A DNA stretch of 64,000 nucleotides, from positions 96,001 through 160,000 of IMG/VR virus record IMGVR_UViG_3300027763_000027; one strand, 5' to 3'. Shown here in pieces: positions 28,305 to 45,967 of the stretch (position 1 is its first letter; each line of letters begins with the position of its first letter). The translations under genes and the position numbers were made by a program. Source of the stretch: a virus. The notes beneath the pieces were generated by a model. The model had not been told where the DNA came from, did no database searches, and saw only the letters and a program-made list of their open reading frames with translations.

Positions 28305-28757
28305 ATGAAGCTAATTAATACCACCTCATATTGTTCTGAAAAGTTAAAAGAAATTATCAAATGGTGTATGCCAGAAGGCGTATTCCTTAAAGACATTAGA
28401 AAGATAGATTTTGGTAATACTAAATTAAATTGGCATGGCAGGGCTTGGGGAAGCATGAGAGTGCATATTGGTGTGCCACGATACGGCAAGTATATTCGTC
28501 CTTATAATACAGGAGGCAGAAGAGGCTATTTAAGTGTTGAAACATATAGCTGGGAAGAAGGTTTAATTGAATTAATTGCTCATGAATTAAGACATATATA
28601 TCAATGGAAAAAAGGTAAGTATTATCATGGTATTAAAAAGATAAGAAAATATAACATGGGTACACGAGCTAAATTATGTGAAGTAGATGCTAGTTTATAT
28701 GCTAAGAGAAAAGTAAGAGAGTATAGAAAAAGTAATTTTAAATTAAATTTGGTTTGA
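28305..28757 (+). CDS. SprT-like zincin metalloprotein
   Basis: IAHELRHIYQ HExxH motif, downstream E. Confidence 0.6.
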   Translation: MKLINTTSYCSEKLKEIIKWCMPEGVFLKDIRKIDFGNTKLNWHGRAWGSMRVHIGVPRYGKYIRPYNTGGRRGYLSVETYSWEEGLIELIAHELRHIYQWKKGKYYHGIKKIRKYNMGTRAKLCEVDASLYAKRKVREYRKSNFKLNLV

Positions 28758-28758
28758 C

Positions 28759-28833
28759 ATAAGTAGTTGATTATTATATAGTTACGTGGGCGGGCTCCCC
28801 GCGCGCGCAAGTCGTTGATAGGTAAGCATTTAC
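28759..28833. repeat. 75-bp paired-palindrome element E1 (extra half site at 28865-28891)
   Basis: ATAAGTAGTTGATTATTATATAGTTAC + 21 bp + GCAAGTCGTTGATAGGTAAGCATTTAC. Confidence 0.85.
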
Positions 28834-28941
28834 ACAACAACAGTAAAAAACTTTAACAGGATTGGCAAGTGTCTGATAATCAGAATCTTATGATACGAAA
28901 AAAGTTCTTGTCATAGTTTAAAAGTGTGGTATGATTAACAT

Positions 28942-29799
28942 ATGGCTAGAACAACAAAACCCGCTCAAAGTGTATACGATTTCGATGTACACCAAGAGCC
29001 ACTCCTCACAACAGACGGCAAGAGGACAGGATACTTCGGGATGGTACGCCGTGATACCCCCGAACCCATGACGCTCGGAGTTTGCACCGAGCAGTATGGT
29101 GTGGTGAAGAATGCAGACCTCGTAACGATGGTCGAAGAGTCGCTAGCGCAGAACAGTATGCTCGCCAATCACAACTCCAAAAAGTTTGTGGTTCGTGATG
29201 GATCCCGTTTCTATGCTAGCTATGACTTCCCTGAGTTCAAAACTCAGTTGAAGCCAGTTGGCAAACGTGCGGTTGGTGATGTGCTTGGTTTGAGATTGAC
29301 TGTTAACAACAGTTATGATCGCTCCAGTCGCGTTTCCCTCTCGCTTGGCTTCCTCCGTTTGGTTTGTTTGAACGGAATGAAGTCGTTGACCAAAGAGTTC
29401 AGCATGACGAAGAGACACACTCTCGCCGTGAATCTGGATTTTATTGGTGATGCATTGGCAAACGCACTCTCCAGTGTTGATACCTCTGTAGCAATCTTCA
29501 ACAGGTTGGCGCAGAAGGCAATCACTGATGAGCAGGGTTTGACATTGCTCACTAAGCTGGAAGAGAAGGCTGTCATCTCTGCTAAGGTGCGCGAAGGCAT
29601 CGAAGCAGTTTGGCGGAATCCTTCTTACGAGGAGGATCATGATCGCAACCTGTACAACTTGTACAACGCCACTACGCAGTTTTTAACTCGTAATGTCGCT
29701 GACGAGCGGTACGAGTATAGCGAGAGGGTCAGCACCGACTTGCTCAAAGTCTTCAGCGGAAAAACCCGCGACGAAGAGCTCCTGAAGCTGGTCGCCTAA
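28942..29799 (+). CDS. DUF932 family protein
   Basis: LGVCTEQYGVVKN, NSYDRS, RLVCLNGM, KRHT, LYNLYNATTQ; visibly GC-richer than the backbone. Confidence 0.85.
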   Translation: MARTTKPAQSVYDFDVHQEPLLTTDGKRTGYFGMVRRDTPEPMTLGVCTEQYGVVKNADLVTMVEESLAQNSMLANHNSKKFVVRDGSRFYASYDFPEFKTQLKPVGKRAVGDVLGLRLTVNNSYDRSSRVSLSLGFLRLVCLNGMKSLTKEFSMTKRHTLAVNLDFIGDALANALSSVDTSVAIFNRLAQKAITDEQGLTLLTKLEEKAVISAKVREGIEAVWRNPSYEEDHDRNLYNLYNATTQFLTRNVADERYEYSERVSTDLLKVFSGKTRDEELLKLVA

Positions 29800-29819
29800 A
29801 CTAAAACGAAACTTTAACA

Positions 29820-29851
29820 GAGGCGGAGGGCAAAACCCTCCGCTTCTTTTT
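29820..29851 (+). terminator. Rho-independent terminator
   Basis: GAGGCGGAGGG-CAAAA-CCCTCCGCTTC then T-run. Confidence 0.85.
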
Positions 29852-29869
29852 GCTTTTTTATTGACATGC

Positions 29870-29944
29870 ATAAGTCGTTATCTATCAAGTATTTACAGCG
29901 CGAGGGACCCTGCGTTTGTAACTCGTTATCTATCAGAGGCTTAC
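29870..29944. repeat. 75-bp paired-palindrome element E2
   Basis: 27+21+27; spacer AGCGCGAGGGACCCTGCGTTT. Confidence 0.9.
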
Positions 29945-29983
29945 AACACTTGACATTTATATTATTTATGTTATAGTTATGAG

Positions 29984-30325
29984 ATGAAAGCAAAGCATAA
30001 AGTATATTATAACTTACATAAGAAGTGTCTTTCTATTATGCTTCGTGGAAAAGTATTAGAGCATAGCACAGAATTTTTTTTGCGTGATGTTGAGTTTAGA
30101 GTGAGTCAAGCAGGGCGCTCCAGGGTTCTAAAGGAACAAAGAAAGAATGTACACGCCTTTGTATGTGGGACTCCAGATGATGGTTGGCCTATTGACCAAA
30201 ATGAAAGAAAGGTAACCTATAATCCTTATAAGTATAACAGCTTTGTTTATTCTGATACCTTTGAACCAGTATATAAAGCAAAATGGGTTGGAGTTATTAA
30301 TAGAGATATTTTTGTCTTGAATTAA
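29984..30325 (+). CDS. Conserved hypothetical phage protein
   Basis: VYYNLHK...GRSRVLKEQRKNVHAFV...YNPYK, widespread phage family. Confidence 0.7.
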   Translation: MKAKHKVYYNLHKKCLSIMLRGKVLEHSTEFFLRDVEFRVSQAGRSRVLKEQRKNVHAFVCGTPDDGWPIDQNERKVTYNPYKYNSFVYSDTFEPVYKAKWVGVINRDIFVLN

Positions 30326-30492
30326 TCTAAAAGTATAGTAAGATTATCTAATGGAAATCACTAAAGCCAAGAAACTAAAGGAGGGCGGTTACGCACTATA
30401 CGCAACTGACCCTAAAACTAAAACCGAAACCCAAGTTGGATATATTGGAGAAGGTCTGACTTTGGAAGCGTGGCTTCCTAAAGGAGTAAAAA

Positions 30493-30879
30493 TTGAAAAC
30501 TCTTGAAGAAACATTTACTAGCAGAGGCTTTAAGTTCACGATGGTTGGTCGTGATGGCGATGTTGCTATCTATAAAAAGCGACTCGATGAACCAGACAGC
30601 GAAGCTTTTAACTATGAAGTGATTGCTATTAAGCGTCACAATGGATATGAGATTGCAGGTGTCAAGATGCCTCCTGCTGAAATGTATCCGTCCGATAGTC
30701 AATGGGGCGATTGGGCTTATACTTGTATTGATCGTGAAGATGCAGACAAGCGATTCGTTCAACTAAAAGAAAAACTATCAGCTTATGTTGCAACATCAAC
30801 TTTAGCTAATGGTGAGAAGCGTGGTCGTGGCCGTCCTCGCAAAATTGATTTGACAAAAACAGAACTTGTGGTATCATAA
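30493..30879 (+). CDS. Hypothetical protein with C-terminal AT-hook
   Basis: KRGRGRPRK. Confidence 0.65.
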   Translation: MKTLEETFTSRGFKFTMVGRDGDVAIYKKRLDEPDSEAFNYEVIAIKRHNGYEIAGVKMPPAEMYPSDSQWGDWAYTCIDREDADKRFVQLKEKLSAYVATSTLANGEKRGRGRPRKIDLTKTELVVS

Positions 30880-31307
30880 CAAAATGACATATAAATGTGC
30901 AGTAAGCGGTGAAGCACTTTCACCAGAGAGAGTTGAGGCTCTGCAAGTCCTCGGCGTTCCAGAGAGTCAATGGACAAAGAAAGAACATAGTCAAACAAAA
31001 AAACTACGAGCTGTATATGCTGGTGACGATGGCAGTAATGACATTGTTATTTGTGATGCAGTAGATGGTGGCTCGATGTTTGATAACGCAGTAGCGTTGG
31101 AGGTAGAAAATGAATCTTAAGTATATCGTTTTGCGAGACGGAATTCGTGTGAGTGAAGATATGCACACGAAGATTGAAGATGCTGAACACGAAGCGGAGT
31201 TTTGGCGTAAAGTCATTCGCTCGTGGCCTGATGGAACGAAAGTTACCATCAAGAAAATCGGCGGATAACTTCGGAGGCTGACATTGAGCTACGGCTTAGT
31301 GTTGATT

Positions 31308-31398
31308 GCTAGGGTCGTCTAACTGGTTAAGACCCCACACTTATAATGTGGTCGCTCTAGATTTGGGCAAAATGTAGGTTCGAATCCTACCCCTAGTA
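31308..31398 (+). tRNA. tRNA-Ile(UAU) with long variable arm
   Basis: Acceptor GCTAGGG/CCCTAGT, anticodon arm CCACA-CTTATAA-TGTGG, T arm GTAGG-TTCGAAT-CCTAC, ~20-nt variable region; no encoded CCA. Confidence 0.8.
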
Positions 31399-31683
31399 TG
31401 TATTATATGTAAGTACTTAATGTTCAACCAATTATTTTTATTGACTATTTTTCTGATTCTTGTATATTAAACCTATGACAAACAAAACAGCACCATTCTA
31501 TGTGATGAATGTGTTCGGTCAAGACCGAGCCGTTATCCTAAACACCTCAATCCGTATGTGTACGCCTAAAGAGACTTGTTCTCTTAAAGAATTGGAGAAC
31601 ATCTCCAAGGCTTTTGGAGTAGAGTTCTTTCAAGTACCAAAACCTTCTAGCTTCCCAGCGAAAGTAGTAGCTTCGTGAAAGAT

Positions 31684-31759
31684 GGGCTTGTAGCTCAATG
31701 GTTAGAGCAGAGCACTCATAATGCTTTGGTTGGGGGTTCAAGTCCCTCCGAGCCCACCA
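31684..31759 (+). tRNA. tRNA-CAT, Ile2-like (lysidine) rather than Met
   Basis: GGGCTTG acceptor, GAGCA-CTCATAA-TGCTT, TTCAAGT loop, encoded CCA. Confidence 0.85.
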
Positions 31760-31886
31760 CTTCTCCTTGTGCGGATTGGATGCTCAACTCTTATAGTAAG
31801 CATGCTGAGATAACTCAAGAAGATGTAGAATGGTATTTAAAAAACAAAAGCATTGACAACAAACAAAGATAGGATAAACTAAAACT

Positions 31887-32273
31887 ATGAAACTTATTAA
31901 ACAAAACCTCGGTGCCCATTGGGTCATCGGAATCAAAGGCAACAAGGACGAGATTGAGCAGTTCCACAATCGAGTCTATAACTGGGGCGGAACAAACGGA
32001 GAGCTTCAATGGATGAGCAACGATTTTGCTTATTTTTGGATTACTCTAGAAAAGTTGGAACGAGTAATGTTTAAGTATGTTATGAATGGCATCACAGATA
32101 AACTTGGTAAGAAGTTTCGTGGTGCAAAAGGTGGATTAAAAGGAGTCGTATCTAATCGTGTCAAGAATACTATTGATAATATTCCAAACGAAACATTTGT
32201 TCGCACAGCACAAGTCGAGGATATATATTCTCTTGGAACAATCTCTGCGGAAAAATTAGATACTGATAGCTAA
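31887..32273 (+). CDS. Hypothetical protein, paralog of 39682-40137
   Basis: YNWGGTNGEL, KGGL, YSLGTISAEK shared. Confidence 0.75.
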   Translation: MKLIKQNLGAHWVIGIKGNKDEIEQFHNRVYNWGGTNGELQWMSNDFAYFWITLEKLERVMFKYVMNGITDKLGKKFRGAKGGLKGVVSNRVKNTIDNIPNETFVRTAQVEDIYSLGTISAEKLDTDS

Positions 32274-32279
32274 ACAATC

Positions 32280-32352
32280 CGCCTAGTAGCCCAATGGCAG
32301 AGGCAAACGACTTAAAATCGTTCAAGTGTCAGTTCGAGTCTGACCTAGGCGA
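32280..32352 (+). tRNA. tRNA-Leu(UAA) with short variable loop
   Basis: CGCCTAG/CTAGGCG acceptor, AACGA-CTTAAAA-TCGTT, GTCAG-TTCGAGT-CTGAC. Confidence 0.8.
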
Positions 32353-32361
32353 AAATCTTTT

Positions 32362-32435
32362 GCTTTCATAGCTCAATTGGATAGAGCAACGGATTTCTAA
32401 TCCGTAGGTTGCAGGTTCAATCCCTGCTGAAAGCG
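32362..32435 (+). tRNA. tRNA-Arg(UCU)
   Basis: GCTTTCA/TGAAAGC acceptor, ACGGA-TTTCTAA-TCCGT, GCAGG-TTCAATC-CCTGC. Confidence 0.9.
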
Positions 32436-32449
32436 TGTAATAATATATT

Positions 32450-33088
32450 ATGATAAGAATACATCCAGTATATTCTTTACGTTTATTAAGGCGTTTAAAT
32501 GTTCCTATTAATACAATTATAGATGTTGGCGTACAATATTCTACTCCATGTCTTAAAAATACTTTTCCAGATAAATTACATATTCTATTTGAGCCTGCTG
32601 CTAATTATTGGAATAAAATAGAAGAATCTTATAAAGATATAAAATATATTCTATATAAAATAGCTTTATTTAAAGAAGATAAAAAAGTTAATTTGAAAAA
32701 AAATGGAGAGCTTTATAGAATCACAGATAATAATGAAATCGGGTTAATAGAAGTGCAAGCTAATAAACTAGACACAATACTTAAGGATACAAACTTCGAA
32801 AAGCCTTATCTTCTTAAACTAGATGTAGACGGAGCAGAACTTGAAATATTAGAAGGCGCACAAGAAACATTAAAAGATTGCTCTACAATATTCATAGAAG
32901 CTCACCCAAGAGATTATTTAGAAAGATGTAATGCAATAGAAAAATATGGTTTTAAATTATTTGATATCGTAGACTTTCGTTATCATGATAATAGACTAGC
33001 TCAATTTGATTTGATATTTATAAAAAAAGATCTTCTACCACATAAAAAACAAAAATTTGATATAACTAAATGGAAAGCGCTAAGATAG
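32450..33088 (+). CDS. FkbM family methyltransferase
   Basis: IIDVGV, FEP, LKLDVDGAELEILEGA, QFDLIF. Confidence 0.85.
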   Translation: MIRIHPVYSLRLLRRLNVPINTIIDVGVQYSTPCLKNTFPDKLHILFEPAANYWNKIEESYKDIKYILYKIALFKEDKKVNLKKNGELYRITDNNEIGLIEVQANKLDTILKDTNFEKPYLLKLDVDGAELEILEGAQETLKDCSTIFIEAHPRDYLERCNAIEKYGFKLFDIVDFRYHDNRLAQFDLIFIKKDLLPHKKQKFDITKWKALR

Positions 33089-33379
33089 CGCACAATAGAA
33101 GGATTCATCAAAATAGTAATTACACATCTAAAATAACTTTTACCAAATATCTAACAGGATAATATAAATACTTGAAATATTTCCTAAATGCCTGTAATAT
33201 AAGTTGATATGAAACATCAAAATAGATTAAGTAAAATACTTGAAAAAAGAATCTTACAAGACGAAGATCCCAAAATGATAGATCAAATAGATAAATTCTT
33301 AAATAATCTAGAAGTTGTTTTTGTTAAATGGGCTAAAGCTCATCCCAATTGGAAAGAATCAGAAGAATAATTAATTACT

Positions 33380-33454
33380 GTAACTGGTTTAGCATAAAGT
33401 AGTTACAAAAGATCCCTCCCTGCCGTCGTAAGTCGTTGACCATCAACGAGATTT
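33380..33454. repeat. 75-bp paired-palindrome element E3
   Basis: 27+21+27; spacer AAAAGATCCCTCCCTGCCGTC. Confidence 0.85.
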
Positions 33455-33502
33455 AACTAAAGATTTTTCTTGTGAAAAAACAAAGCTGTGGTATATTTAA
33501 GT

Positions 33503-33769
33503 ATGAACAAAATCAAATTAGCAATCATATACGCAACCTCATATCTGAAACACTTCGTCCTTTTCCTTTTTGGGCAAAGGTATTTAATCGAATACAAACC
33601 CTACGGCAAGAATGATGTCTATACTTACATCATCGGCAAGCCTTCTTCTCATACCATCAGCAAGGCAGGGAACAAGCTATTCACTAGCTTCTGCTTTTCT
33701 GGTCGTATGGATTCTGGCGTGAAGCAATTTCGCTACGATAGAATTACTGGCGGTCTCTCACCAGTCTAA
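33503..33769 (+). CDS. Hypothetical protein
   Basis: Start MNKIK just after promoter downstream of E3; followed by terminator. Confidence 0.6.
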   Translation: MNKIKLAIIYATSYLKHFVLFLFGQRYLIEYKPYGKNDVYTYIIGKPSSHTISKAGNKLFTSFCFSGRMDSGVKQFRYDRITGGLSPV

Positions 33770-33821
33770 CAACAGAGAGATTAGAGGGTTTATTATTCTG
33801 TTCCCTCTATCCTTCATATAG

Positions 33822-33853
33822 AAAGGGCGAGGCCTAAAAACCTCGCCTTTTTT
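33822..33853 (+). terminator. Rho-independent terminator
   Basis: AAAGGGCGAGG-CCTAAAAA-CCTCGCCTTT + T-run. Confidence 0.8.
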
Positions 33854-33886
33854 ATTGCACATAAACAAAGTTATGTTAAGATAGTT

Positions 33887-34104
33887 TTAGTTCTTCGATA
33901 TCAGAGAAGGTTGACCGCAAGGTTGCAGTTCTGGAAAGTTTCTAATGGAAACATTAGTTATATATAACGGAATGCCAATACTTCTCGAGCGAGTCTGACT
34001 AACTCCATAAGAGGATGAACCTGCCAACGCCCAGAGTCTGAGGCAAATTAAAAGAGCAGGGTATTTCCTTTACGAATCATGAGCGTAAAGGGTCGAAGAA
34101 CTAA
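33887..34104 (+). ncRNA. Candidate structured ncRNA B (~218 nt)
   Basis: TTGCAC-16-TAAGAT promoter; 12-bp perfect closing stem TTAGTTCTTCGA/TCGAAGAACTAA; internal stems with GCAA and GAAA tetraloops. Confidence 0.65.
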
Positions 34105-34280
34105 TTTTTATTACGCCATTTTTCTCTATGATGGCAAACCCAATTTAACAGAGCTTTTTCAAAACCAATATCGTGTCCTGCTTTTTCGCTTTCGATCCAT
34201 TTGTGTTTTAATATCTCTTCGCGTTCTTCCATAAACTTTTTATACAACGCAGAAGATTCAAGTAAACCAGATACCCTCAT
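34101..34280 (-). CDS. 59-aa DUF4032-like protein (not in ORF track)
   Basis: MRVSGLLESSALYKKFMEEREEILKHKWIESEKAGHDIGFEKALLNWVCHHREKWRNKN; GTGTAA motif upstream on minus strand (34289-34294). Confidence 0.75.
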   Translation of the reverse strand: MRVSGLLESSALYKKFMEEREEILKHKWIESEKAGHDIGFEKALLNWVCHHREKWRNKN

Positions 34281-34318
34281 AACTTATATTACACTATATT
34301 GATTTAAAATCAAATATT

Positions 34319-34393
34319 TTATCTCTTTGATAGTTAAGCACTTACAACGCAAGAGTCCCTGTCTTTATAAGTTGTTGATAATGAGAGAGTTAT
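34319..34393. repeat. 75-bp paired-palindrome element E4
   Basis: 27+21+27; spacer AACGCAAGAGTCCCTGTCTTT. Confidence 0.85.
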
Positions 34394-34527
34394 TACTCTC
34401 CCATATCACGAGCATGGTCAGCATCAAGCTCTGCCTGAGTTTCTAAGGCTCGTTCCATAGCTTGATCGTCCCACATTTCTTTTGCCCAGATTTTTAGTGT
34501 TTTTTCGTCATCGAATATGTTCATCAT
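34393..34527 (-). CDS. 44-aa acidic protein, sole gene between E4 and E5
   Basis: MMNIFDDEKTLKIWAKEMWDDQAMERALETQAELDADHARDMGE; AAGGAGGT SD and TTGACA promoter on minus strand. Confidence 0.65.
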   Translation of the reverse strand: MMNIFDDEKTLKIWAKEMWDDQAMERALETQAELDADHARDMGE

Positions 34528-34581
34528 ATTTACCTCCTTTCTTTCTATAGATTATCATATTTTTGTTTTATGTCAACATTT

Positions 34582-34656
34582 TTATTCTGTTGATTATCAA
34601 TGACTTGTGAAGGCAACCTCCCTCGTGCTATAAGTTGTTGATGGTGAATGAGATTT
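34582..34656. repeat. 75-bp paired-palindrome element E5 (between divergent promoters)
   Basis: 27+21+27; spacer GAAGGCAACCTCCCTCGTGCT. Confidence 0.85.
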
Positions 34657-34695
34657 ATTAGTAGACAAAAAAACAATTTCTGATATATTTAAGCT

Positions 34696-35535
34696 ATGAA
34701 AGTAAATGAAATCATCACCGAAAAATTCATCGAAGCCCTCAACAAAGGTGTCATCCCTTGGCAGAAACCTTGGAAAGTTTTTGATCTCTGCAATGGAGTT
34801 TCAAAAAAGAATTATAGGGGGATTAATCAATTTTTGCTACGGATGCTCGCTTCTGATGATTTCTTTTTTACATTCAATCAGATTAAGGAGCTAGGTGGGA
34901 GAATCAAAAAGGGTGCAAAGTCTCACATGGTAGTTTATTACAAATTGCTCAAAACTGAAAGCAACAATGAAACCAAAACTTTTCCAATGATGAGATTCTA
35001 TAAAGTTTTTGGGTTGAGTGATATTGAGGGCATGAAGTGGAAACAGCCCGAAGTTAAGAAGTTGGATTTTTCACCAGTAGAAGAAGCAGAAAAGTTGATC
35101 AACAAGTGCATCATTCAGATTAAACATGGTGGCAGTCGTGCCTGTTATTATCCGCAGGAGCATAAAATTGATCTTCCTCCAAAAGAAAACTTCACCAGCG
35201 TTGAGGAGTATTATTCCACAGCGTTCCATGAGATTGGTCACGCTATGCACAAGGCTACAAGCGATGAAGTGAAGAATGGATTTGGTTCACAGAATTATAG
35301 CAAAGAAGAATTGACAGCAGAAATTTTTGCGAGTCTCTGCCTTAACTTCTGCGGAATTGATTCAGAAAAATGTTTCAACAATTCTGCGAGCTATCTTTCG
35401 AGCTGGCTTCAAGTATTAAAGAAAGACATGAACTTTATTATTTCAGCTTCTAGCAAAGCACAAAAAAGATTTGACGCTTTTATTGGTAGAAAAGAAAGCG
35501 AAGAGATTCCACAAGAAGAAGCTGTAACTGCTTAA
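34696..35535 (+). CDS. ardC: ArdC-like antirestriction protein (ssDNA-binding + zincin)
   Basis: GVIPWQKPW, YRGIN, TFNQ, RACY, YYSTAFHEIGH, YSKEELTAE, SASYLSSW. Confidence 0.9.
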   Translation: MKVNEIITEKFIEALNKGVIPWQKPWKVFDLCNGVSKKNYRGINQFLLRMLASDDFFFTFNQIKELGGRIKKGAKSHMVVYYKLLKTESNNETKTFPMMRFYKVFGLSDIEGMKWKQPEVKKLDFSPVEEAEKLINKCIIQIKHGGSRACYYPQEHKIDLPPKENFTSVEEYYSTAFHEIGHAMHKATSDEVKNGFGSQNYSKEELTAEIFASLCLNFCGIDSEKCFNNSASYLSSWLQVLKKDMNFIISASSKAQKRFDAFIGRKESEEIPQEEAVTA

Positions 35536-35598
35536 GTATTAACTACTTACGCAAGCGGGGTCCCTGCCTTCGTAAGTCATTGATAGTCAATGAGATTT
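35524..35598. repeat. 75-bp paired-palindrome element E6 (overlaps ardC stop)
   Basis: 27+21+27; spacer GCAAGCGGGGTCCCTGCCTTC. Confidence 0.85.
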
Positions 35599-35647
35599 AA
35601 CTGTAAAAAAAACTTGTCACAAGAAAAAAAAGTGTTAATCTAATTCT

Positions 35648-36283
35648 ATGTTCAAAAACAAAAAACAAGCCGAAGAGATTGTAGGTACACTCTCAAAACC
35701 CTCGAAGATGCCTGGATATGCTTATTCAACGCCCGCAAAGCGTTGTCTTATCGGGCAGAAAATGCGGAATGTTGTAGGAAGCATTTGTGCTTTTTGCTAT
35801 GCTCTTAAAGGGCGTTATGTTTTTCCTAATGTTCAGAAAGCCATGGAAAAGCGTTTCGCTTCTCTTACTAACGATTTGTGGGTAGATGCTATGACATACT
35901 TAATCGGCAAAGTTAAGAATCCACATTTCAGGTGGCACGATTCAGGAGACTTGCAAGGTGTGTGGCATATTGAAAAGATCGTGAAGATTGCAAAGAATCT
36001 TCCTCACATTTCTTTTTGGCTTCCAACTCGTGAATATGCTTTCGTTTCAACTTATATCGAACAAGGTGGAGAAGTGCCTAGTAATCTTACCATCCGTTTG
36101 TCTGCTCTTATGATGGATGGCCCCGCACCCGTAGGAATTGCACAACGCCTTGGCTTGTGTGTTAGTGGTGCAAGCAAGTTAGGAAACTTTAACTGCCCAT
36201 CTTCCAAACAAGGCAACAAGTGCGGTGATTGTCGCAAGTGTTGGGATAAAAATGAGTTTGCAATCGACTATAAAAAGCATTAA
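35648..36283 (+). CDS. Phage Gp88-like Cys-rich protein
   Basis: SKMPG, C...CAFCYA, FRWHDSGD, WLPTRE, C...CGDCRKCW. Confidence 0.75.
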   Translation: MFKNKKQAEEIVGTLSKPSKMPGYAYSTPAKRCLIGQKMRNVVGSICAFCYALKGRYVFPNVQKAMEKRFASLTNDLWVDAMTYLIGKVKNPHFRWHDSGDLQGVWHIEKIVKIAKNLPHISFWLPTREYAFVSTYIEQGGEVPSNLTIRLSALMMDGPAPVGIAQRLGLCVSGASKLGNFNCPSSKQGNKCGDCRKCWDKNEFAIDYKKH

Positions 36284-36516
36284 GATGTCTAGATGACATT
36301 ATTTTTAATCTTATTTACCTTATTTACCATCGTACTTATTAAAAAATCATATGAATAAAATCGAAAAATTACTAAACGAAAACCTAGAATCTTTTTATCC
36401 TTGGAACGATTCTGATAATCCTCCACTCGACACAAACAAAAGCTTTGTGCAAAAGCAGAGAGAGATTGACGAAGTGTTTGAAGGTTGGCGAGCGAGTATG
36501 TAAAAAACTTGCTGGT

Positions 36517-36591
36517 GTAAGTCTTTGATTATCAAGGATTTACATCGGCAGAGACCCTGCGGTTGCAAGTCGTTGACTATCAATAACTTAG
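36517..36591. repeat. 75-bp paired-palindrome element E7 (at transcription convergence)
   Basis: 27+21+27; spacer ATCGGCAGAGACCCTGCGGTT. Confidence 0.9.
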
Positions 36592-36685
36592 CGACGCTCT
36601 ATAATTGATCTTATTAAAGCATAAATTAATTGCAAAAAAACCAATCCAAAGTATGCATAAACACAGATTAAAAAAGTTTGCATAA

Positions 36686-36949
36686 TTATTCTCCACAAAG
36701 ATTTTCGTCACCAGCCCAACCGAAATCTTCCATCTGGAAGCACCCGCCATTGTAATCCTCGTCAGTGCCGTGGCCAGCAGAAGCCATAGCAGAGTCGAAG
36801 TCGCCATCCATAGAATCGTCTGGCTCGTTAGAGGTTTCGGATTTGATAGCGCGATCATCCTCGCGCATTTCGTTAAGGATGTCGCGCACATCCTGCGAGC
36901 CCAACATATGTTGAGCCATCCATTCCTTGAGAGACGCTTTGTAGTCCAT
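36686..36949 (-). CDS. Acidic hypothetical protein
   Basis: DSAMASAGHGTDEDY; GGAGG SD; GC-rich. Confidence 0.7.
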   Translation of the reverse strand: MDYKASLKEWMAQHMLGSQDVRDILNEMREDDRAIKSETSNEPDDSMDGDFDSAMASAGHGTDEDYNGGCFQMEDFGWAGDENLCGE

Positions 36950-36950
36950 A

Positions 36951-37115
36951 TTATTTTACCTCCACAATAGTTTCGACCGAATCGTAAACCCCACTCAACG
37001 CATCGAGCATCGAGTTAACCACATCATTGGAATTGATGTAGTCAAAGAACGCATTTGCGTCCGCATAAACTTCCTCGCAGGTTTCCGTCGCTAGGGATGT
37101 GATTTGATTTGTCAT
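36951..37115 (-). CDS. 54-aa acidic protein (not in ORF track)
   Basis: MTNQITSLATETCEEVYADANAFFDYINSNDVVNSMLDALSGVYDSVETIVEVK. Confidence 0.6.
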   Translation of the reverse strand: MTNQITSLATETCEEVYADANAFFDYINSNDVVNSMLDALSGVYDSVETIVEVK

Positions 37116-37244
37116 AGATTAAATGTATCACAGATTTGATTTAGCGCAAGATTTATTTTGTGAAAAAGGAAATAGAAGAATATCTAATAGCAAATAGCCT
37201 CGATCTTTTGGCTTCATTCAGTTTTTGTCGCAAGATCAGCATTC

Positions 37245-37319
37245 GTAAGTTGTTGATAGTCAAAGGTTTACGCGCGCCCCCTCCCTGCGCTCGTAAGTCG
37301 TTGATGCTTAGAGGCTTAC
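37245..37319. repeat. 75-bp paired-palindrome element E8
   Basis: 27+21+27; spacer GCGCGCCCCCTCCCTGCGCTC. Confidence 0.9.
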
Positions 37320-37453
37320 AAGAGGTCTCTGAGATTCAAACAACTCGCAGAAAGATAGTAGAAAAATCTTTCACGCAGAAAGTTTTTTGCATAACCATTT
37401 TTCACGGCAAGTCTATAAGTTTTTTTATTTAGTTTGAAAAGGATTTTTTTCAT

Positions 37454-37717
37454 TTAGTCTCCTTTATATTTCGAGGATTCGTTGAAACTTCCTATGAAGT
37501 TCATCGTTCCATTTTTGCGTTCTTCGCATTGTTTGAGAAGTTCGGGAGTCATTTCGACTTCGGTCACTTCATCATAAAAAGCTAGGACACTTCCAACACC
37601 AGAGATTCTGGAAAGGCATTTTTTGTTAGAGGTTGAATTGAGCATTTCGCAGATTGCGATATGGTTTTCGATTTGGTAGTATTTTCCTACTACGAGGTTT
37701 TCTATTATGTTTTTCAT
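37454..37717 (-). CDS. Hypothetical protein
   Basis: Likely start MKNIIEN; half site at 37759-37785 upstream of its promoter. Confidence 0.55.
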   Translation of the reverse strand: MKNIIENLVVGKYYQIENHIAICEMLNSTSNKKCLSRISGVGSVLAFYDEVTEVEMTPELLKQCEERKNGTMNFIGSFNESSKYKGD

Positions 37718-37781
37718 ATACTTATAATCTATCACACTTTCCTATTTTGTCAAACTTTTTTTCTCTTTGATTATTAACGAT

Positions 37782-38000
37782 TTAGCGATACCAGACAAGA
37801 GAATCTGTATCGACATTATACAATCCGCTACGAAGATAAATGGTTGTCCATTTACCTTTGTCCTCACCTTCGAGGATTTCAGCAGTTGCAGTCATAGTTT
37901 TCCAACCGATTGTAGAAGGGAAAACCTTTACGAGTAGTCTTTCGTGACCATATCGAAAAGTATTTTCATCTGTAGTTAGTTCTTTATTTATTGTTATCAT
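37782..38000 (-). CDS. Hypothetical protein, paralog of 38554-38829
   Basis: TAEILEGEDKGKWTTIYL vs VVTFLEGKDKDKVGTINL; shared 5' leader. Confidence 0.6.
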   Translation of the reverse strand: MITINKELTTDENTFRYGHERLLVKVFPSTIGWKTMTATAEILEGEDKGKWTTIYLRSGLYNVDTDSLVWYR

Positions 38001-38087
38001 TTTATTTTTTCTTTCTTTGTTATTTCTTATCTTGTTATAAGTATAGTTTAGCATATTTCAGAGAAAACGCAACAAAAATCTTCATTT

Positions 38088-38162
38088 AAATTTCATTGAT
38101 CATCAACGAGTTACAACGCAAGGGCCCCTGCGTCTGTAAGTCATTGTCTTCTAACAACTTAC
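38088..38162. repeat. 75-bp paired-palindrome element E9
   Basis: 27+21+27; spacer AACGCAAGGGCCCCTGCGTCT. Confidence 0.9.
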
Positions 38163-38176
38163 ATCAGCTAATTTTG

Positions 38177-38374
38177 TCAAACACCAAACTTGTTACGATA
38201 TTGATTATATAGGTTTTGATATTCTTCGCCCCATTCTGATTCACCAGCTTGGGCGATAGCTTCTTCTATCTCTTCGAGTTGTTTTTGACCCCTACGATAG
38301 TAGTATGAGTCTTCACTCATTTGGTAAGTCCAATCGTGATTCTTTAAGAGTTCTTCGAATTGTTGAATGTTCAT
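38177..38374 (-). CDS. Conserved hypothetical phage protein
   Basis: LLKNHDWTYQMSED...YRRG. Confidence 0.65.
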   Translation of the reverse strand: MNIQQFEELLKNHDWTYQMSEDSYYYRRGQKQLEEIEEAIAQAGESEWGEEYQNLYNQYRNKFGV

Positions 38375-38378
38375 TTAT

Positions 38379-38552
38379 TTATTTTCCATTAAGTTTTGCC
38401 TTTAGTAAGGCGTGAGCTTTAGCCTTTTCAGGATTATTCTTTTTCCATTCAGACCATCGCTTTTTGCGATTAGCCCAAAGAGCTTGATTTTTTTCTTTAC
38501 GTTGAATTTCCCATTCTTGGGAAGTTAGTTCTTTTTTATTATCTTTATTCAT
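38379..38552 (-). CDS. 57-aa basic protein (not in ORF track)
   Basis: MNKDNKKELTSQEW...WKKNNPEKAKAHALLKAKLNGK; fills gap between neighbours. Confidence 0.55.
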   Translation of the reverse strand: MNKDNKKELTSQEWEIQRKEKNQALWANRKKRWSEWKKNNPEKAKAHALLKAKLNGK

Positions 38553-38553
38553 T

Positions 38554-38829
38554 TTATTTACTTTCTTTCTGTACTAGTGAAGCATTGTTAAGGTTGATAG
38601 TTCCAACCTTATCTTTATCTTTACCTTCTAGGAAGGTTACAACTGCAGTATTTGCAGAAGTTTTGTAAGAAACTTTTACTAGAGTTCCTTCGTAAAGGTA
38701 TATTTCACCAAAGTAAGTTGGTGTATTGTTAGAGTTAGTTATGATGGATTCATTACTATCCATATTTTTTCGCATATTTTCACGCATTTGTTTTCGTTGA
38801 AAATTCCAATTTATCATTCTATGTGTCAT
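38554..38829 (-). CDS. Hypothetical protein, paralog of 37782-38000
   Basis: See 37782; half site at 38923-38949 upstream. Confidence 0.6.
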   Translation of the reverse strand: MTHRMINWNFQRKQMRENMRKNMDSNESIITNSNNTPTYFGEIYLYEGTLVKVSYKTSANTAVVTFLEGKDKDKVGTINLNNASLVQKESK

Positions 38830-39020
38830 TTTATTTTTTTCTTTCTTTGTTATTTGTTATCTTTTATCTTATGTATATAGTTTACCAGAAAATCCTCAAA
38901 AGTCAAATTATTTTTTTCATTTATTTTTCGTTGATTATTAAGCACTTAGGATTGAGTAAAAGATTCCTGCCATAAAAATTGCCCAAATTAGGATTGCTGT
39001 TGCGAAGATTCCTTCTTTGT

Positions 39021-39179
39021 TCATTTTTGTGTTTCCTCGTGAGCTACTTCGACTTTGTGTTCGTATTTTGCGAAACTTTCATCGAGTCTTTTTTGGGATT
39101 CTTCAACGGCTTTTTTGAGGTCAGCCGAGGCTTTGTCTAAATTTCCGAGGAGGATTTCTAATTTTGTTTTTCTTTTCAT
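39021..39179 (-). CDS. 52-aa coiled-coil protein, paralog of 40143-40316
   Basis: MKRKTKLEILLGNLDKA...; first gene downstream of E10. Confidence 0.6.
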   Translation of the reverse strand: MKRKTKLEILLGNLDKASADLKKAVEESQKRLDESFAKYEHKVEVAHEETQK

Positions 39180-39228
39180 ACCTATAATTTATCACATTTT
39201 AGAAATTTTGCAAGATATTTTTTCATTT

Positions 39229-39303
39229 AAATTTCATTGTCCATCAACGAGTTACAACGCAAGGGAGCGCCCCGTCCTAAGTCGTTGTTACTCAGCTACT
39301 TAC
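39229..39303. repeat. 75-bp paired-palindrome element E10 (overlaps SleB stop)
   Basis: 27+21+27; spacer AACGCAAGGGAGCGCCCCGTC. Confidence 0.85.
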
Positions 39304-39677
39304 AACTTATAGAACTTGTGGTTGCGTATTGTAGCCACTAGCCTTGCGTCCCTAGCCCACCTAGGAGCGACGCTGATAGCGTGGTAATGGTTTGCACCCT
39401 TTACAATGTCTGGCATCTGTTTATGGATGACTAGGTCAGCAAGGTATAGAGCGTTCTTACCTTGTGCCGTTGCTAGTAGTTTCTTCTTTGTTGCCTCACT
39501 TACTCCACCATTCCAGAAGCTGAATTGTTTGGGTGATAAGCATACTTGTTTAGCTGATTGCTTACGCTCTACCATTCGTGTTTGTATGACGCTAGCAACG
39601 CCCGCCATTCCTTCGAATGTCTCGCCCCTAGCTTCGCCTAGGAGCGTAAGTGCTACGATGAATAGTTCTGCTGTCAT
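39300..39677 (-). CDS. Cell wall hydrolase, SleB/Hydrolase_2 family
   Basis: GEARGE, VASVI..R, QFSFWN, GANHYHA, PRWA, NHKFY. Confidence 0.9.
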   Translation of the reverse strand: MTAELFIVALTLLGEARGETFEGMAGVASVIQTRMVERKQSAKQVCLSPKQFSFWNGGVSEATKKKLLATAQGKNALYLADLVIHKQMPDIVKGANHYHAISVAPRWARDARLVATIRNHKFYKL

Positions 39678-39681
39678 AGGA

Positions 39682-40101
39682 TTAATCCCTTCCGTTACTT
39701 ACTGCACCGCAGTAATCGCTAGGTTTCTCTGCACTGATAGTGCCGAGGCTATACCCCTCGGAGCTACTCGCACCCCAAAGGAAGCAGGTCTGCACCATAT
39801 CATCTATAATGCTCTGTGCCTTGTCTGTTGCGAGATCAAGGAGTCCACCTTTTCGACCCTTTGCGTTAATCTTGTTCACGAATGCGTGAAGGGCAACCTT
39901 AACAAGAGCCTTCTTCACATCATCTGGATGAGCGTAGAAGTAAAACGCTTTGCCGTTGCCCATATCGTGCAACTTGCCGTTAGTTCCTTCCCAATTATAG
40001 ATGCTATTGAAGAAGTGATTGATTTGTTTGATACTTCCTTCGAGAAGGTAAGCATTGTTTTCGCCGAAGGTTTGGTAACTGATTTTGAGGTTTTGTTTCA
40101 T
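39682..40101 (-). CDS. Hypothetical protein, paralog of 31887-32273
   Basis: YNWEGTNGKL, KGGL, YSLGTISAEK; likely start MKQNLK. Confidence 0.75.
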   Translation of the reverse strand: MKQNLKISYQTFGENNAYLLEGSIKQINHFFNSIYNWEGTNGKLHDMGNGKAFYFYAHPDDVKKALVKVALHAFVNKINAKGRKGGLLDLATDKAQSIIDDMVQTCFLWGASSSEGYSLGTISAEKPSDYCGAVSNGRD

Positions 40102-40142
40102 AGGTTCTATATTGCCTTTCTGGATTGGTTTCGTCAAGTAAT

Positions 40143-40316
40143 TTATTCGATGATATGAGAGATATTCGTTACAGCGAGAAACGCTTGTTTCTCCTTCTGT
40201 AACTTCTCGTATTCGCTGGCTACTTTGCCAAGTTGGATTACTGCTTGGTTATGGTTGCTCATAGCTTTATCTAGGTTAGCTAGGAGTCTTTCGAACTTAT
40301 TCATTTTTTTCTTCAT
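40143..40316 (-). CDS. 57-aa coiled-coil protein, paralog of 39021-39179
   Basis: MKKKMNKFERLLANLDKA... Confidence 0.6.
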   Translation of the reverse strand: MKKKMNKFERLLANLDKAMSNHNQAVIQLGKVASEYEKLQKEKQAFLAVTNISHIIE

Positions 40317-40365
40317 ACCTTTAATCTATCACAGAATAGGAATATCACAAGATATTTCTTCAGTT

Positions 40366-40392
40366 AAATTTCATTGAATATCAACGACTTAC
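40366..40392. repeat. Single 27-bp palindrome (last half site of the array)
   Basis: AAATTTCATTGAATATCAACGACTTAC. Confidence 0.8.
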
Positions 40393-44057: not shown

Positions 44058-44692
44058 TTATTTTCCTTTATTTTATAATCATAATTATCACTATCTTCAG
44101 TAACCCATTTGGGGCTATTTTCAGCAGTATAAATATGAGAATTTATTTTTCTTTGCAACAATAATTCATTTGGTTTTGTTGCGAAGCTTGGATCGAACAC
44201 CCTAATCCTATTATTAGGTTGTATTGCAAAATTACCATTATCGAGTTTTATAACATGACCAGCTTTATGTTGATCTGCTCTTTGACTAAATCCAAAATTT
44301 AATTCATTATAATCGCTATGAGCCCAGTCGAGAGTAAATAAATAACGGCCCATATATTCTTTACCACTTCTACCAGTATATTTAATTATTTTATTTTCTA
44401 GCAAATAAAAATTTGTTACAGATATATGATAACTAAAGCTATCCCAAAGCTCTAATTCAGCAAGCTCCATATCTGGAGCATCTTCTATAGAACAAAAAGC
44501 ACTTATAGGCGCATGCCACCAAATACCACCATCTTCCATAAGAAAATTAAAAAGTGGGACTTGGCTAGGTAAACTTGTAACTCCAAAAATTAAACATTTA
44601 TATTTTTTATCGAAACTATCTTCTTGATTTCTTAAATAATTTCCTCTTACAAAGGCTTCAATTGGAGGAATATTTGCGTTTAGATATGCCAC
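44054..44692 (-). CDS. Conserved hypothetical phage protein
   Basis: LNANIPP, LWDSFS, YLFTLDW, QPNNR; GTGTAA upstream on minus strand. Confidence 0.75.
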   Translation of the reverse strand: MAYLNANIPPIEAFVRGNYLRNQEDSFDKKYKCLIFGVTSLPSQVPLFNFLMEDGGIWWHAPISAFCSIEDAPDMELAELELWDSFSYHISVTNFYLLENKIIKYTGRSGKEYMGRYLFTLDWAHSDYNELNFGFSQRADQHKAGHVIKLDNGNFAIQPNNRIRVFDPSFATKPNELLLQRKINSHIYTAENSPKWVTEDSDNYDYKIKENK

Positions 44693-44748
44693 AGCTAATT
44701 TATTTACACATAATATTAAATTATAGTGTAAATATGAATGTAAGCTAC

Positions 44749-45468
44749 ATGTCTAAAAAGCATAAACAAAAAGAAGATAAGTCCGCTCCCGTTCCTCAAA
44801 GAGATAAAATTGAAGGTTTCTTAAATATTCGAGAATTACAATGGACAGATAATCAGAAAACATTCATACAACTTCTTCAAGATAAGAGCACTAAAATAGT
44901 CCTTTGCAAAGGTCCAGCTGGTACAGCTAAAAGTTTACTGAGCGTTTATGCTGCTTTAAATGCTATTAATAGTAAGAAAATAGGCGAAATATTCTATGTT
45001 CGTAATCCCGTAGAGAGCTCTTCTCATAATCTCGGATTTCTTAAAGGTGACCTTCATAGTAAACTTGATCCTTATTTGCAACCCCTTATGGATAAACTTC
45101 ACGAACTACTACCTAAAGGACAAGTAGACATGCTTTTGAAACAAGAAAGAGTAAAAGGATTACCAGTCGGATTCTTAAGAGGATTAAGTATCAACGCAAG
45201 TTATATAATATGCGACGAAGCCCAAAACTTAAGCGTAAATGATCTTTTACTTATTAAAACTAGAATGGGTAAATTTAGTAAGCTTATATTAATAGGAGAT
45301 ATACGTCAATCTGATATTAAGAATAGTGGTTTTGAAAAAATTTACAACCTTTTTGATGATAAAATAAGTCGAGAAAAAGGCATACATACATTTAAATTTC
45401 GAACAGAGGATATCATGAGAAATGATATTCTAGCTTATATTATAGAAAAATTCGAAGAACTTAAATAA
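44749..45468 (+). CDS. phoH: PhoH-like ATPase
   Basis: GPAGTAKS, LGFLKG, FLRG, DEAQN, TRMG, GDIRQSD, DIMR. Confidence 0.92.
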   Translation: MSKKHKQKEDKSAPVPQRDKIEGFLNIRELQWTDNQKTFIQLLQDKSTKIVLCKGPAGTAKSLLSVYAALNAINSKKIGEIFYVRNPVESSSHNLGFLKGDLHSKLDPYLQPLMDKLHELLPKGQVDMLLKQERVKGLPVGFLRGLSINASYIICDEAQNLSVNDLLLIKTRMGKFSKLILIGDIRQSDIKNSGFEKIYNLFDDKISREKGIHTFKFRTEDIMRNDILAYIIEKFEELK

Positions 45469-45503
45469 TTGAAATTTTAATTAATTTAAAGTATAATTAT
45501 ATT

Positions 45504-45953
45504 ATGCTTAAAGTATATTGTTCTCAATGTGGTTCGCCTACATCTTATTCCGCTGTTAAACCTAAATTTTGTAGTGGATGTGGGCGCTCTTTCGATGGTA
45601 CGGTAGTTAATAAAATACAAAATCAACAACCAGTTATAATAAAACAAGAACCTATTAAAAAAAATATACCAAAAATTCAACCAAGAGCACAAATTGAAAA
45701 TTATGATGATGGGGATGATTATGAAGGCCAAGAAGTCAATTATGTTCCAGAAATTTCAAGGTTGGATTGCGAAATAACCGAATCAAAACCAAAGGGAACT
45801 AAAATTAAAGATTTAGCTGGAACATTAAAAGATTCAGAAAGATCAATAGAACCTAATTCTATTATTAAAAGTAAAAAAATGTCAAAATCTGAAAAAAAGA
45901 AAGCGGCATTAAGTATCTTGAAAGAGGGAGCATCTATTCGCGTCAAGAAATAA
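45504..45953 (+). CDS. Zinc-ribbon protein
   Basis: CSQCG...FCSGCG. Confidence 0.65.
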   Translation: MLKVYCSQCGSPTSYSAVKPKFCSGCGRSFDGTVVNKIQNQQPVIIKQEPIKKNIPKIQPRAQIENYDDGDDYEGQEVNYVPEISRLDCEITESKPKGTKIKDLAGTLKDSERSIEPNSIIKSKKMSKSEKKKAALSILKEGASIRVKK

Positions 45954-45967
45954 TTGAGACATAAATA

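Follow-up and report, generated by a model that had tools for sequence, protein, structure and literature searches.

Why would a virus set the same pair of palindromes, at a constant distance from one another, between one small transcription unit and the next? The question arises from a 64,000-nucleotide window of viral DNA, bases 96001–160000 of the 171,916-bp IMG/VR virus record IMGVR_UViG_3300027763_000027, which is rated complete. Coordinates in this text are those of the window unless marked as genome. An initial annotation, made from the window alone, had noticed ten intergenic elements of fixed geometry between positions 28759 and 40392. Each of these 75-bp modules consists of a 27-bp palindrome (P1), a 21-bp GC-rich core and a second 27-bp palindrome (P2); we refer to the palindrome as P. 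We located all ten modules, and the distance from the start of P1 to the start of P2 is 48 bp in every one of them (10/10). The analysis presented here establishes that these modules are real, strongly selected and clade-wide, and that they resemble in their action, without homology, the promoter-early stem-loops (PeSLs) of T4-type phages. We also think it probable, albeit with modest confidence, that they are boundary modules between early or accessory transcription units, that an architectural protein binds P, and that cassettes are exchanged by homologous recombination.

To locate further copies we used a position weight matrix (PWM) of the 13-nt half-site, trained on the ten pairs. With this matrix we found 25 sites of at least 14 bits in the 171,916-bp genome, compared to 0.4 expected from Markov-1 simulations. 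All sites of at least 13 bits fall inside 28759–40392, save two borderline ones at genome 94358, about 1.6 kb ahead of the window start, and at genome 115770 (window 19770). Hence the sites are concentrated in this region and not evenly spread over the genome. Five further positions in the region, which had been taken for lone half sites, are real, but each of them is a complete single 27-mer; these five single Ps score 13–21 bits although they were kept out of the training set. The earlier impression that the element occurs nowhere else in the window holds, and apart from the two borderline sites this extends to the complete genome. The core is GC-rich with G-runs and C-runs, and its consensus among elements with 48-bp spacing is palindromic (GCrGGG-n-CCCTGC). 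The self-complementarity of the entire 75-mer had been taken as a hint of a hairpin under selection; instead of a selected structure, it is a by-product of repeating one palindromic site.

Promoters, gene ends and duplex recognition

Sigma70-like promoters with a TTGACA-like –35 hexamer and an extended TGnTATAAT-like –10 hexamer adjoin the promoter-facing P on either strand. In the window, the –35 hexamers begin 5 or 15–16 nt past the outer end of P. From about 2,000 distinct P flanks across the clade of related viruses described below, we obtained a distribution of the gap between P and –35 with peaks at 5 nt (75 cases), 15–16 nt (43 cases) and 29 nt (22 cases), whereas the control was flat with 0–8 cases per bin. 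The gaps change in steps of about 10 bp and therefore keep P on the same face of the helix, with its centre near –55 or –65. This distribution shows that P stands in helical register with predicted host-type sigma70 promoters. The promoter-facing arm carries an A/T-rich variant end that reads ..GAGATTT on the plus strand and AAATTTC.. on the minus strand, as expected from the earlier remark that this end flips with gene orientation. The array reads as follows (palindromic elements are unstranded).

28759–28833: paired element 1 (P1 28759–28785, 21-bp GC-rich spacer, P2 28807–28833); starts 2 nt past the stop of the open reading frame at 28305–28757
28865–28891: single P, 16 nt upstream of the –35 of the DUF932-gene promoter
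28908–28935, plus strand: sigma70-like promoter TTGTCA-16-TGnTATGAT for the DUF932 gene at 28942–29799
29819–29857, plus strand: canonical intrinsic terminator with a 12-bp stem and a T-run, between the DUF932 gene and element 2
29870–29944: paired element 2; –35 TTGACA (29950) 5 nt past P2; left breakpoint of the block transposed in the related locus L003
31409–31435: single P after the tRNA-Ile gene; –35 TTGACT (31441) 5 nt beyond; breakpoint of the L003 transposition
33380–33454: paired element 3; –35 TTGTGA (33470) 15 nt past P2; breakpoint of the L003 transposition
34319–34393: paired element 4; convergent junction with no promoter; left edge of the minus-strand cassette 34394–34581
34582–34656: paired element 5; divergent junction; on the left a minus-strand –35 TGTCAA (34571–34576) 5 nt from P1, read by eye; on the right a plus-strand –35 TAGACA (34662) 5 nt from P2, predicted by promoter scan to drive ardC
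34696–35535, plus strand: ArdC-like anti-restriction gene with ArdcN and MPTase-PolyVal domains; stop within P1 of element 6
35524–35598: paired element 6; promoter-like TTGTGC about 14 nt past P2 (by eye), followed by a GP88-family gene at 35648–36283
36517–36591: paired element 7; convergent junction with a promoter on neither side; top-scoring palindromes of the genome
37245–37319: paired element 8
37759–37785: single P, 5 nt from the –35 TTGACA (37753–37748) of a minus-strand promoter
38088–38162: paired element 9; P1 toward the minus-strand promoter of the gene at 37782–38054; P2 abuts the end of the gene at 38177–38374
38923–38949: single P, 16 nt from the –35 TTGACT (38906–38901) of a minus-strand promoter
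39229–39303: paired element 10; P2 overlaps the stop of the SleB-like cell-wall hydrolase gene at 39300–39677 (minus strand)
40366–40392: single P upstream of the minus-strand operon 40316–39300; right end of the array

As this list shows, the overlaps with the stop codons of ardC (P1 of the element at 35524) and of the SleB-like gene (P2 of the element at 39229) that had been noticed before are indeed present. Paired modules occupy three types of junction, namely tandem (gene end, module, promoter), divergent (34582) and convergent without a promoter (34319 and 36517). Every transcription unit is bracketed by P, and the units are joined via the GC core. The proposed partition of the region into gene cassettes is therefore borne out, with modules at operon boundaries of all three kinds. 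Since a canonical terminator at 29819–29857 precedes element 2, the module is not simply a terminator and cannot be the sole terminator at this junction.

Selection could act on protein-binding geometry or on a hairpin of single-stranded DNA; both had been suggested for these elements. From related contigs we compiled 384 distinct paired elements together with 685 distinct 27-mers and examined both sets for covariation. Over the 685 copies, pairing between mirror positions of P does not exceed the level predicted from shuffles (all z ≤2.7); positions 5 and 23, for example, are paired with a frequency of 0.454 against an expectation of 0.416. P1 and P2 of the 384 elements do not show excess complementarity either. 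Because neither the mirror positions nor P1 and P2 covary and the halves vary independently, we take P for a duplex DNA site. These data show a palindrome that a symmetric binder would recognise as duplex DNA. Of the two earlier suggestions, protein-binding geometry is thus the one that agrees with the data. RNA folds of five window elements are heterogeneous as well: they range from a long hairpin or three hairpins to one element that folds no better than shuffles, with z-scores from –5.4 to 0.0. Together with the lack of covariation in P, between P1 and P2 and in the core of elements with 48-bp spacing, this heterogeneity speaks against the hairpin reading, which we therefore rejected.

A related proposal is that the modules act mainly as RNA, that is, as terminators, stabilisers or RNase III-type processing hairpins similar to the early RNase III sites of T7 or the stem-loops of PeSLs. 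This role would explain why some folds are much stronger than those of shuffles (z = –5.4 and –3.7) and why the G-run/C-run cores recall the GGGG...CCCC stems of PeSLs. It would also suit relatives with other spacings: the core of the 58-bp class is the only one with an obvious stem, tetraloop and T-run terminator, and in the 50-bp class some core positions covary. However, neither P nor the P1–P2 pair covaries in hundreds of copies, and the folds vary between elements. The core of the 48-bp class, to which the window belongs, does not covary, and its minimum free energy is only slightly better than that of shuffles (–4.95 vs –3.89 kcal/mol). The canonical terminator ahead of element 2 is separate from the module, and the element at 34582, flanked by promoters that point away from it, would escape transcription. 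Based on these observations we consider a primarily RNA-based function quite unlikely.

Spacing and cassette exchange across the clade

We retrieved 27 related loci by way of the ArdC protein and at least 118 viral DNA stretches by way of the P pattern. In all element-bearing contigs, a gene module encoding PhoH, a Zn-ribbon protein, a sigma70_r2-like protein, a 364-aa protein, an ERCC4 nuclease and TerL sits just downstream of the element region. Since this PhoH-to-TerL module is common to all of them, we assign the element-bearing contigs to a single uncultivated clade. P is nearly identical clade-wide, and the core has a contig-specific flavour. The spacing had been described as invariable; this is true within a genome, but relatives differ. 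It is constant per contig, and between contigs it amounts to 41, 42, 47, 48, 49, 50, 51, 52, 53, 57 or 58 bp. Genomes with mixed spacings also occur, such as L006 with six modules of 47 bp, two of 48 bp and one of 49 bp. (Handles of this form denote the loci that we retrieved.) Pairs stand on either side of the DUF932 gene in the 48-, 50-, 51-, 53- and 58-bp classes, although the encoded proteins share only 24–37% identity. A layout that is kept across lineages at this level of protein identity must be ancient, and by the same comparison P is under stronger constraint than the genes that it flanks.

In the PhoH tree, the subclade that contains the window has 48-bp spacing except for L014 (49 bp, 7/7 modules), L028 (50 bp, 7/7) and L011 (51 bp, 6/7). 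These three loci, and likewise L006 with its shift to 47 bp, differ from their 48-bp relatives by only 10–20% at the nucleotide level. Orthologous spacers differ in sequence as well as in length. The concerted spacing within each genome could be due to a lineage-specific ruler protein or to homogenisation among modules.

Compared by blastn, the window and the 27 relatives form a mosaic. In L003, the block corresponding to window 29947–31398 is placed after window position 33354, and every one of the three breaks of this transposition coincides with P: at element 2, at element 3 and at the single P (31409) between them. The minus-strand cassette 34394–34581 is absent in L014–L018 and in L024, where one hybrid element remains. 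The crossover that deleted it lies at the 3' end of the core in L016 and inside the core in L018; in the latter the cassette is now found after element 7. A comparison of synteny between relatives, as the initial annotation had proposed, thus shows that cassettes were gained, lost and transposed at breakpoints within the elements. Overall, 32 of 88 distinct rearrangement breakpoints (36%) fall within 25 bp of P, in contrast to 13% of random positions, which is a 2.7-fold enrichment. Breakpoints are therefore enriched at the elements, but not confined to them.

These rearrangements might suggest site-specific recombination sites of an integron-like system, in which imperfect palindromes (attC sites) lie between cassettes that are gained and lost. 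The elements do bracket single genes or small operons, and cassettes have been gained, lost and moved with breakpoints in the elements. Nevertheless, this proposal, which also stood in the initial annotation, is largely refuted and in our view highly improbable. The annotation had noted that no integrase is encoded in the window. This is correct, and tyrosine and serine recombinases (PF00589, PF00239) are absent even from the complete genome, while control genomes were positive. In attC sites the structure is conserved and recombination requires IntI, whereas here the sequence is conserved, covariation is lacking and there is no integrase. In addition, crossover points vary, cassettes occur in both orientations and have their own promoters, elements also occupy other types of junction, and the core is too variable within a genome for the core site of a recombinase. 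Because crossover points vary and no tyrosine or serine recombinase is present, we take homologous recombination between dispersed repeats to be the probable route of exchange.

A closer parallel is found in T4-type phages, as had also been suggested before. PeSLs combine a sigma70-like early promoter with a GC-rich stem-loop that ends transcription arriving from upstream, and the exchange of the cassettes between them was shown to proceed by homologous recombination, with small excised circles as products (Arbiol et al. 2010, PMC2839356; Comeau et al. 2014, PMC4122927). Like PeSLs, the modules are dispersed composite intergenic repeats limited to hyperplastic regions of small accessory genes, with a sigma70-like early promoter, in our case predicted, that adjoins a GC-rich G-run/C-run sequence, here a putative stem-loop. 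In both systems the flanked genes have been inserted, deleted or replaced between relatives, with variable crossovers inside the repeat. As a terminator hairpin, the core of the modules is convincing in the 58-bp class only, and weak in the 48-bp class of the window. Unlike the modules, PeSLs lack two flanking 27-bp palindromes, a rigid spacing specific to each genome and any motif resembling a site of the host protein IHF (see below). The modules also occur without promoters at convergent junctions, P has no counterpart in the PeSL description, and the phage is not T4-like. Consequently, the parallel is to be read as analogy rather than homology. We found no published description of the modules: searches with the motif string returned nothing relevant, and a literature search on IHF and intergenic palindromic repeats in phage genomes turned up only papers on CRISPR. 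Within the literature and the isolate phages searched, the elements can be regarded as undescribed.

Candidate binders and bacterial copies of P

The reverse complement of the P half-site consensus reads ATCAA-CGAS-TTAC, which has the form ATCAA-N4-TTA, and P contains it in mirrored form. In the IHF consensus WATCAANNNNTTR, WATCAR lies between two kinks 9 bp apart, and TTR lies in the flank (bioRxiv 10.1101/382655). Each half-site of P fits WATCAANNNNTTR at every specified position, and three of the four N positions of this consensus are among the four least-conserved positions of P. A3 and T10 are invariant in 683–685 of 685 copies; in terms of the consensus, the invariant bases are the A that closes CAA and the central T of TTR. 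The TTGAT-N-ATCAA centre contains two TT/AA steps 9 bp apart, and IHF would presumably place its kink at such a step. The length of 27 bp is also close to that of an IHF footprint. On the other hand, P mirrors the consensus perfectly while the IHF sites known so far lack symmetry, and P also conserves positions 1, 6 and 7, which lie outside the IHF consensus. Since the half-site is the IHF consensus in mirrored form, a DNABII host factor of the IHF/HU type is the leading candidate for the binder of P. We regard this identification as a tentative lead, not as proof.

Two families of bacterial repeats invite comparison. BIME-1 (RIP) of E. coli and the Correia elements of Neisseria carry IHF sites, are intergenic and lie near GC-rich palindromes, terminators and promoters. 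P is likewise intergenic and lies beside GC-rich palindromes, terminators and promoters, although the order is inverted: in BIME-1 two GC-rich REPs surround one IHF site, whereas the modules have two IHF-like sites around one GC-rich core.

P also occurs in bacterial chromosomes. With a strict P pattern we found at least 120 stretches in bacterial genomes (loci L147–L266), where about 4–10 were expected by chance. Among the matches listed, most are single intergenic sites from several phyla; some are paired, on contigs that resemble misbinned phage. In Fibrobacter, P is found at two intergenic positions that are orthologous between genomes, one in 18 and the other in 10 metagenome-assembled genomes (MAGs). 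Allowing up to 3 mismatches, we counted 325 copies in a Microscillaceae MAG, 44 in a WOR-3 MAG, 10 in a Verrucomicrobiae chromosome and 3–7 in Fibrobacter, with reversed-pattern controls at 0. In the WOR-3 MAG, P lies within a longer conserved repeat that is followed by a –35-like TGGACA. Bacterial neighbourhoods are diverse (gidA, polysaccharide export, M23 peptidase, histidine kinase), and no gene recurs as a neighbour of P in the P-rich MAG. A connection to the replication origin was dismissed, as no DnaA boxes lie near the P upstream of gidA in a Kiritimatiellae MAG.

The bacterial copies bear on the idea that P, or the paired module, is a selfish mobile element of the REPIN type or of the type of miniature inverted-repeat transposable elements, spread by an enzyme acting in trans, with its regulatory position being secondary. 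Bertels and Rainey reportedly described REPINs in 2011 as inverted doublets with a family-specific conserved spacing. The modules are likewise inverted doublets, with a spacing that is constant per genome and takes values of 41–58 bp in different genomes, and the explosive, patchy copy number in bacteria (including the 44 copies in the WOR-3 MAG) would also be in line with such an element. However, a Y1 (RAYT-type) transposase is absent from the phage and from the WOR-3 MAG. In Microscillaceae this enzyme is encoded in 21 of 25 genomes whatever the copy number of P, and its genes do not flank P. Since Y1 transposases do not track P, we rejected a link to the REP/RAYT system in bacteria. In addition, hairpin covariation is absent, and in the phage clade the modules keep orthologous positions around cassettes over deep divergence. 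Overall, we consider a selfish element improbable.

Could P be the operator of a regulator that the phage itself encodes, such as an early shut-off repressor or an activator, with a protein that bridges both Ps and thereby sets the length of the core? Palindromic duplex sites at every early unit boundary with a fixed –35 register would suit such a regulator. Genome-specific spacing and core flavour suggest a co-evolving phage-encoded ruler, and clade-conserved proteins of 149 aa (Zn-ribbon), 227 aa (sigma-like) and 364 aa are encoded next to the region. The closest model would be the stoperators of cluster A mycobacteriophages, which are asymmetric sites of 13–14 bp, oriented with transcription and bound by the temperate phage's own repressor. 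They resemble the modules in that many copies of one protein-binding site stand at gene or operon boundaries over a segment of the genome. In contrast, the 27-bp palindrome P usually comes in pairs, belongs to a phage that has no integrase, and is also found in bacterial chromosomes. A dedicated regulator is difficult to reconcile with the near identity of P in lineages whose orthologous proteins share about 25% identity. In several phyla, P occurs in bacterial chromosomes without homologues of the ERCC4, 364-aa and 149-aa proteins. In particular, these three candidates for a binder shared between the phage and the P-rich bacterium have no homologue in the MAG with 325 copies or in its family. 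Moreover, no DNA-binding domain was detected in the cassette proteins that we scanned. We therefore view a phage-encoded regulator as rather unlikely.

We return to the boundary modules that we favour. According to this model, two copies of P around a GC-rich core mark boundaries in a hyperplastic early or accessory region. P would be bound by an architectural protein that bends DNA. With this protein on both flanks of a stiff GC core, the module would set the architecture upstream of the promoter and insulate adjacent units from one another. In some lineages the core may double as a true terminator hairpin. As a by-product, the dispersed modules would provide preferred crossovers for ordinary homologous recombination, which could delete, move and exchange cassettes without a dedicated recombinase, as in the case of PeSLs; the crossovers inside repeats and the hyperplastic accessory region accord with this comparison.

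Several observations weigh against this model. All spacers of one genome can shift in concert, from 48 to 49, 50 or 51 bp, a change that the model does not account for, and the spacings of 41–58 bp share no helical phase across lineages. Nearly two thirds of the rearrangement breakpoints are away from P. No HU/IHF gene was detectable in the phage genome, and hence a host factor must be assumed; none was found in four other element-bearing contigs either, all of which are fragments. HU/IHF-like genes are present in four of five P-carrying bacterial genomes, but none of the five encodes a canonical IhfA, and the MAG with 325 copies gave no himA-like match at E ≤1e-5. E. coli has abundant IHF and yet no P-type palindromes. 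Finally, the other 24 genomes of the Microscillaceae family contain 0–6 copies of P compared to 325 in one MAG. P therefore appears to expand patchily, like a mobile repeat, and a conserved nucleoid-protein site should not show such a distribution. It is mainly because of this pattern in bacteria that we name the binder only tentatively.

A generic mirrored-IHF pattern was found in E. coli K-12 mainly in the seven rrn leaders, which represent one repeated sequence, and in five other places, with one match in the control; this result weighs neither for nor against IHF. In NC_000913.3, TAA-N4-TTGAT-N-ATCAA-N4-TTA occurs with 1–2 mismatches directly before the 16S gene in all seven rrn operons, for example at 223747–223771. 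This match is probably coincidental.

The concerted shifts in core length and the patchy expansion suggest either a new protein-and-site system or a miniature mobile palindrome that is common to phages and bacteria. We give some limited credence to a variant in which P serves to dock a DNA-binding factor other than classical IHF, one that has spread horizontally and escaped recognition. Together with a core whose measured length is specific to the lineage, this factor would form a tripartite chromatin-boundary or insulator complex. If this variant is true, the system would organise early transcription and channel cassette exchange in phages.

Cassette genes and implications

The region comprises small transcription units on both strands, with genes for a DUF932 protein, an L5 gp82-like protein, four tRNAs, an FkbM methyltransferase, ArdC, a GP88-family protein, an acidic 87-aa protein, a SleB-like hydrolase and many ORFans. 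The GC content of cassette genes ranges from 0.27 to 0.51, compared to about 0.30 in core genes, and this spread fits a mixed origin. Among the genes elsewhere in the window are those for a ligase, rIIA/rIIB, a clamp loader and a remote TerL. The relationship of this TerL to its counterparts in Bacillus siphophages is only distant, the clade is not T4-like, and no related isolate phage was found. The conserved module that adjoins the element region (44662–50515, plus strand) encodes PhoH, the 149-aa Zn-ribbon protein, the 227-aa sigma70_r2-like protein, the 364-aa protein without a known family, a 311-aa ERCC4 nuclease and TerL.

Searches against characterised sequences returned little. By megablast, the region matched isolate phages only at the tRNA-Arg gene and gave no match to plasmids; one element searched by blastn gave only chance-level matches to isolate phages, and tblastn returned no isolate relative of the clade-specific 364-aa protein. 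An Rfam scan of the region identified the four tRNAs and nothing else.

Several cassette genes deserve mention in their own right. The FkbM-type methyltransferase gene (32450–33088, plus strand, GC 0.27) lies directly 3' of the tRNA-Arg gene. It is missing in all 27 related loci, the alignments of which skip from about 32435 to about 33090–33110, and it represents a genome-specific insertion without P elements at its edges. The acidic 87-aa protein (36686–36949, minus strand, GC 0.51) has no Pfam or PHROG match, and its motif SMDGDFDSAMASAGHGTDEDYG is conserved across the 42-, 48-, 50- and 51-bp spacing classes; this protein might mimic DNA or inhibit a DNA-binding protein of the host. The tRNA-Ile(TAT) gene (31307–31399, plus strand) measures 93 nt instead of the usual 73–77 nt, which suggests an insertion or an unusually long arm. 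Paralogous proteins of 128–151 aa without a known family are encoded in separate cassettes at 39682–40137 (minus strand) and 31887–32273 (plus strand), and this family is present in 46 of the loci fetched. Outside the window, at genome 70338–70725 (minus strand), the phage encodes a one-piece tmRNA with a long tag peptide of 24 residues that ends in ASVA; it is uninformative with regard to the host.

The conservation of P is among the strongest non-coding constraints seen in any one phage clade. Since P has remained almost unchanged while the flanked proteins diverged to about 25% identity, an important protein–DNA interaction is likely. If the binder is a DNA-bending protein of the host, these phages would have built their early promoters and operon boundaries around the chromatin architecture of the host. 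The modules define exchange points for accessory genes, including those for anti-restriction (ardC), DUF932 proteins and cell-wall hydrolases, and provide a handle to predict and engineer cassette turnover in large environmental phages. The presence of P in bacteria of several phyla widens the question beyond a phage curiosity, to a possible cross-kingdom family of repeats or sites.

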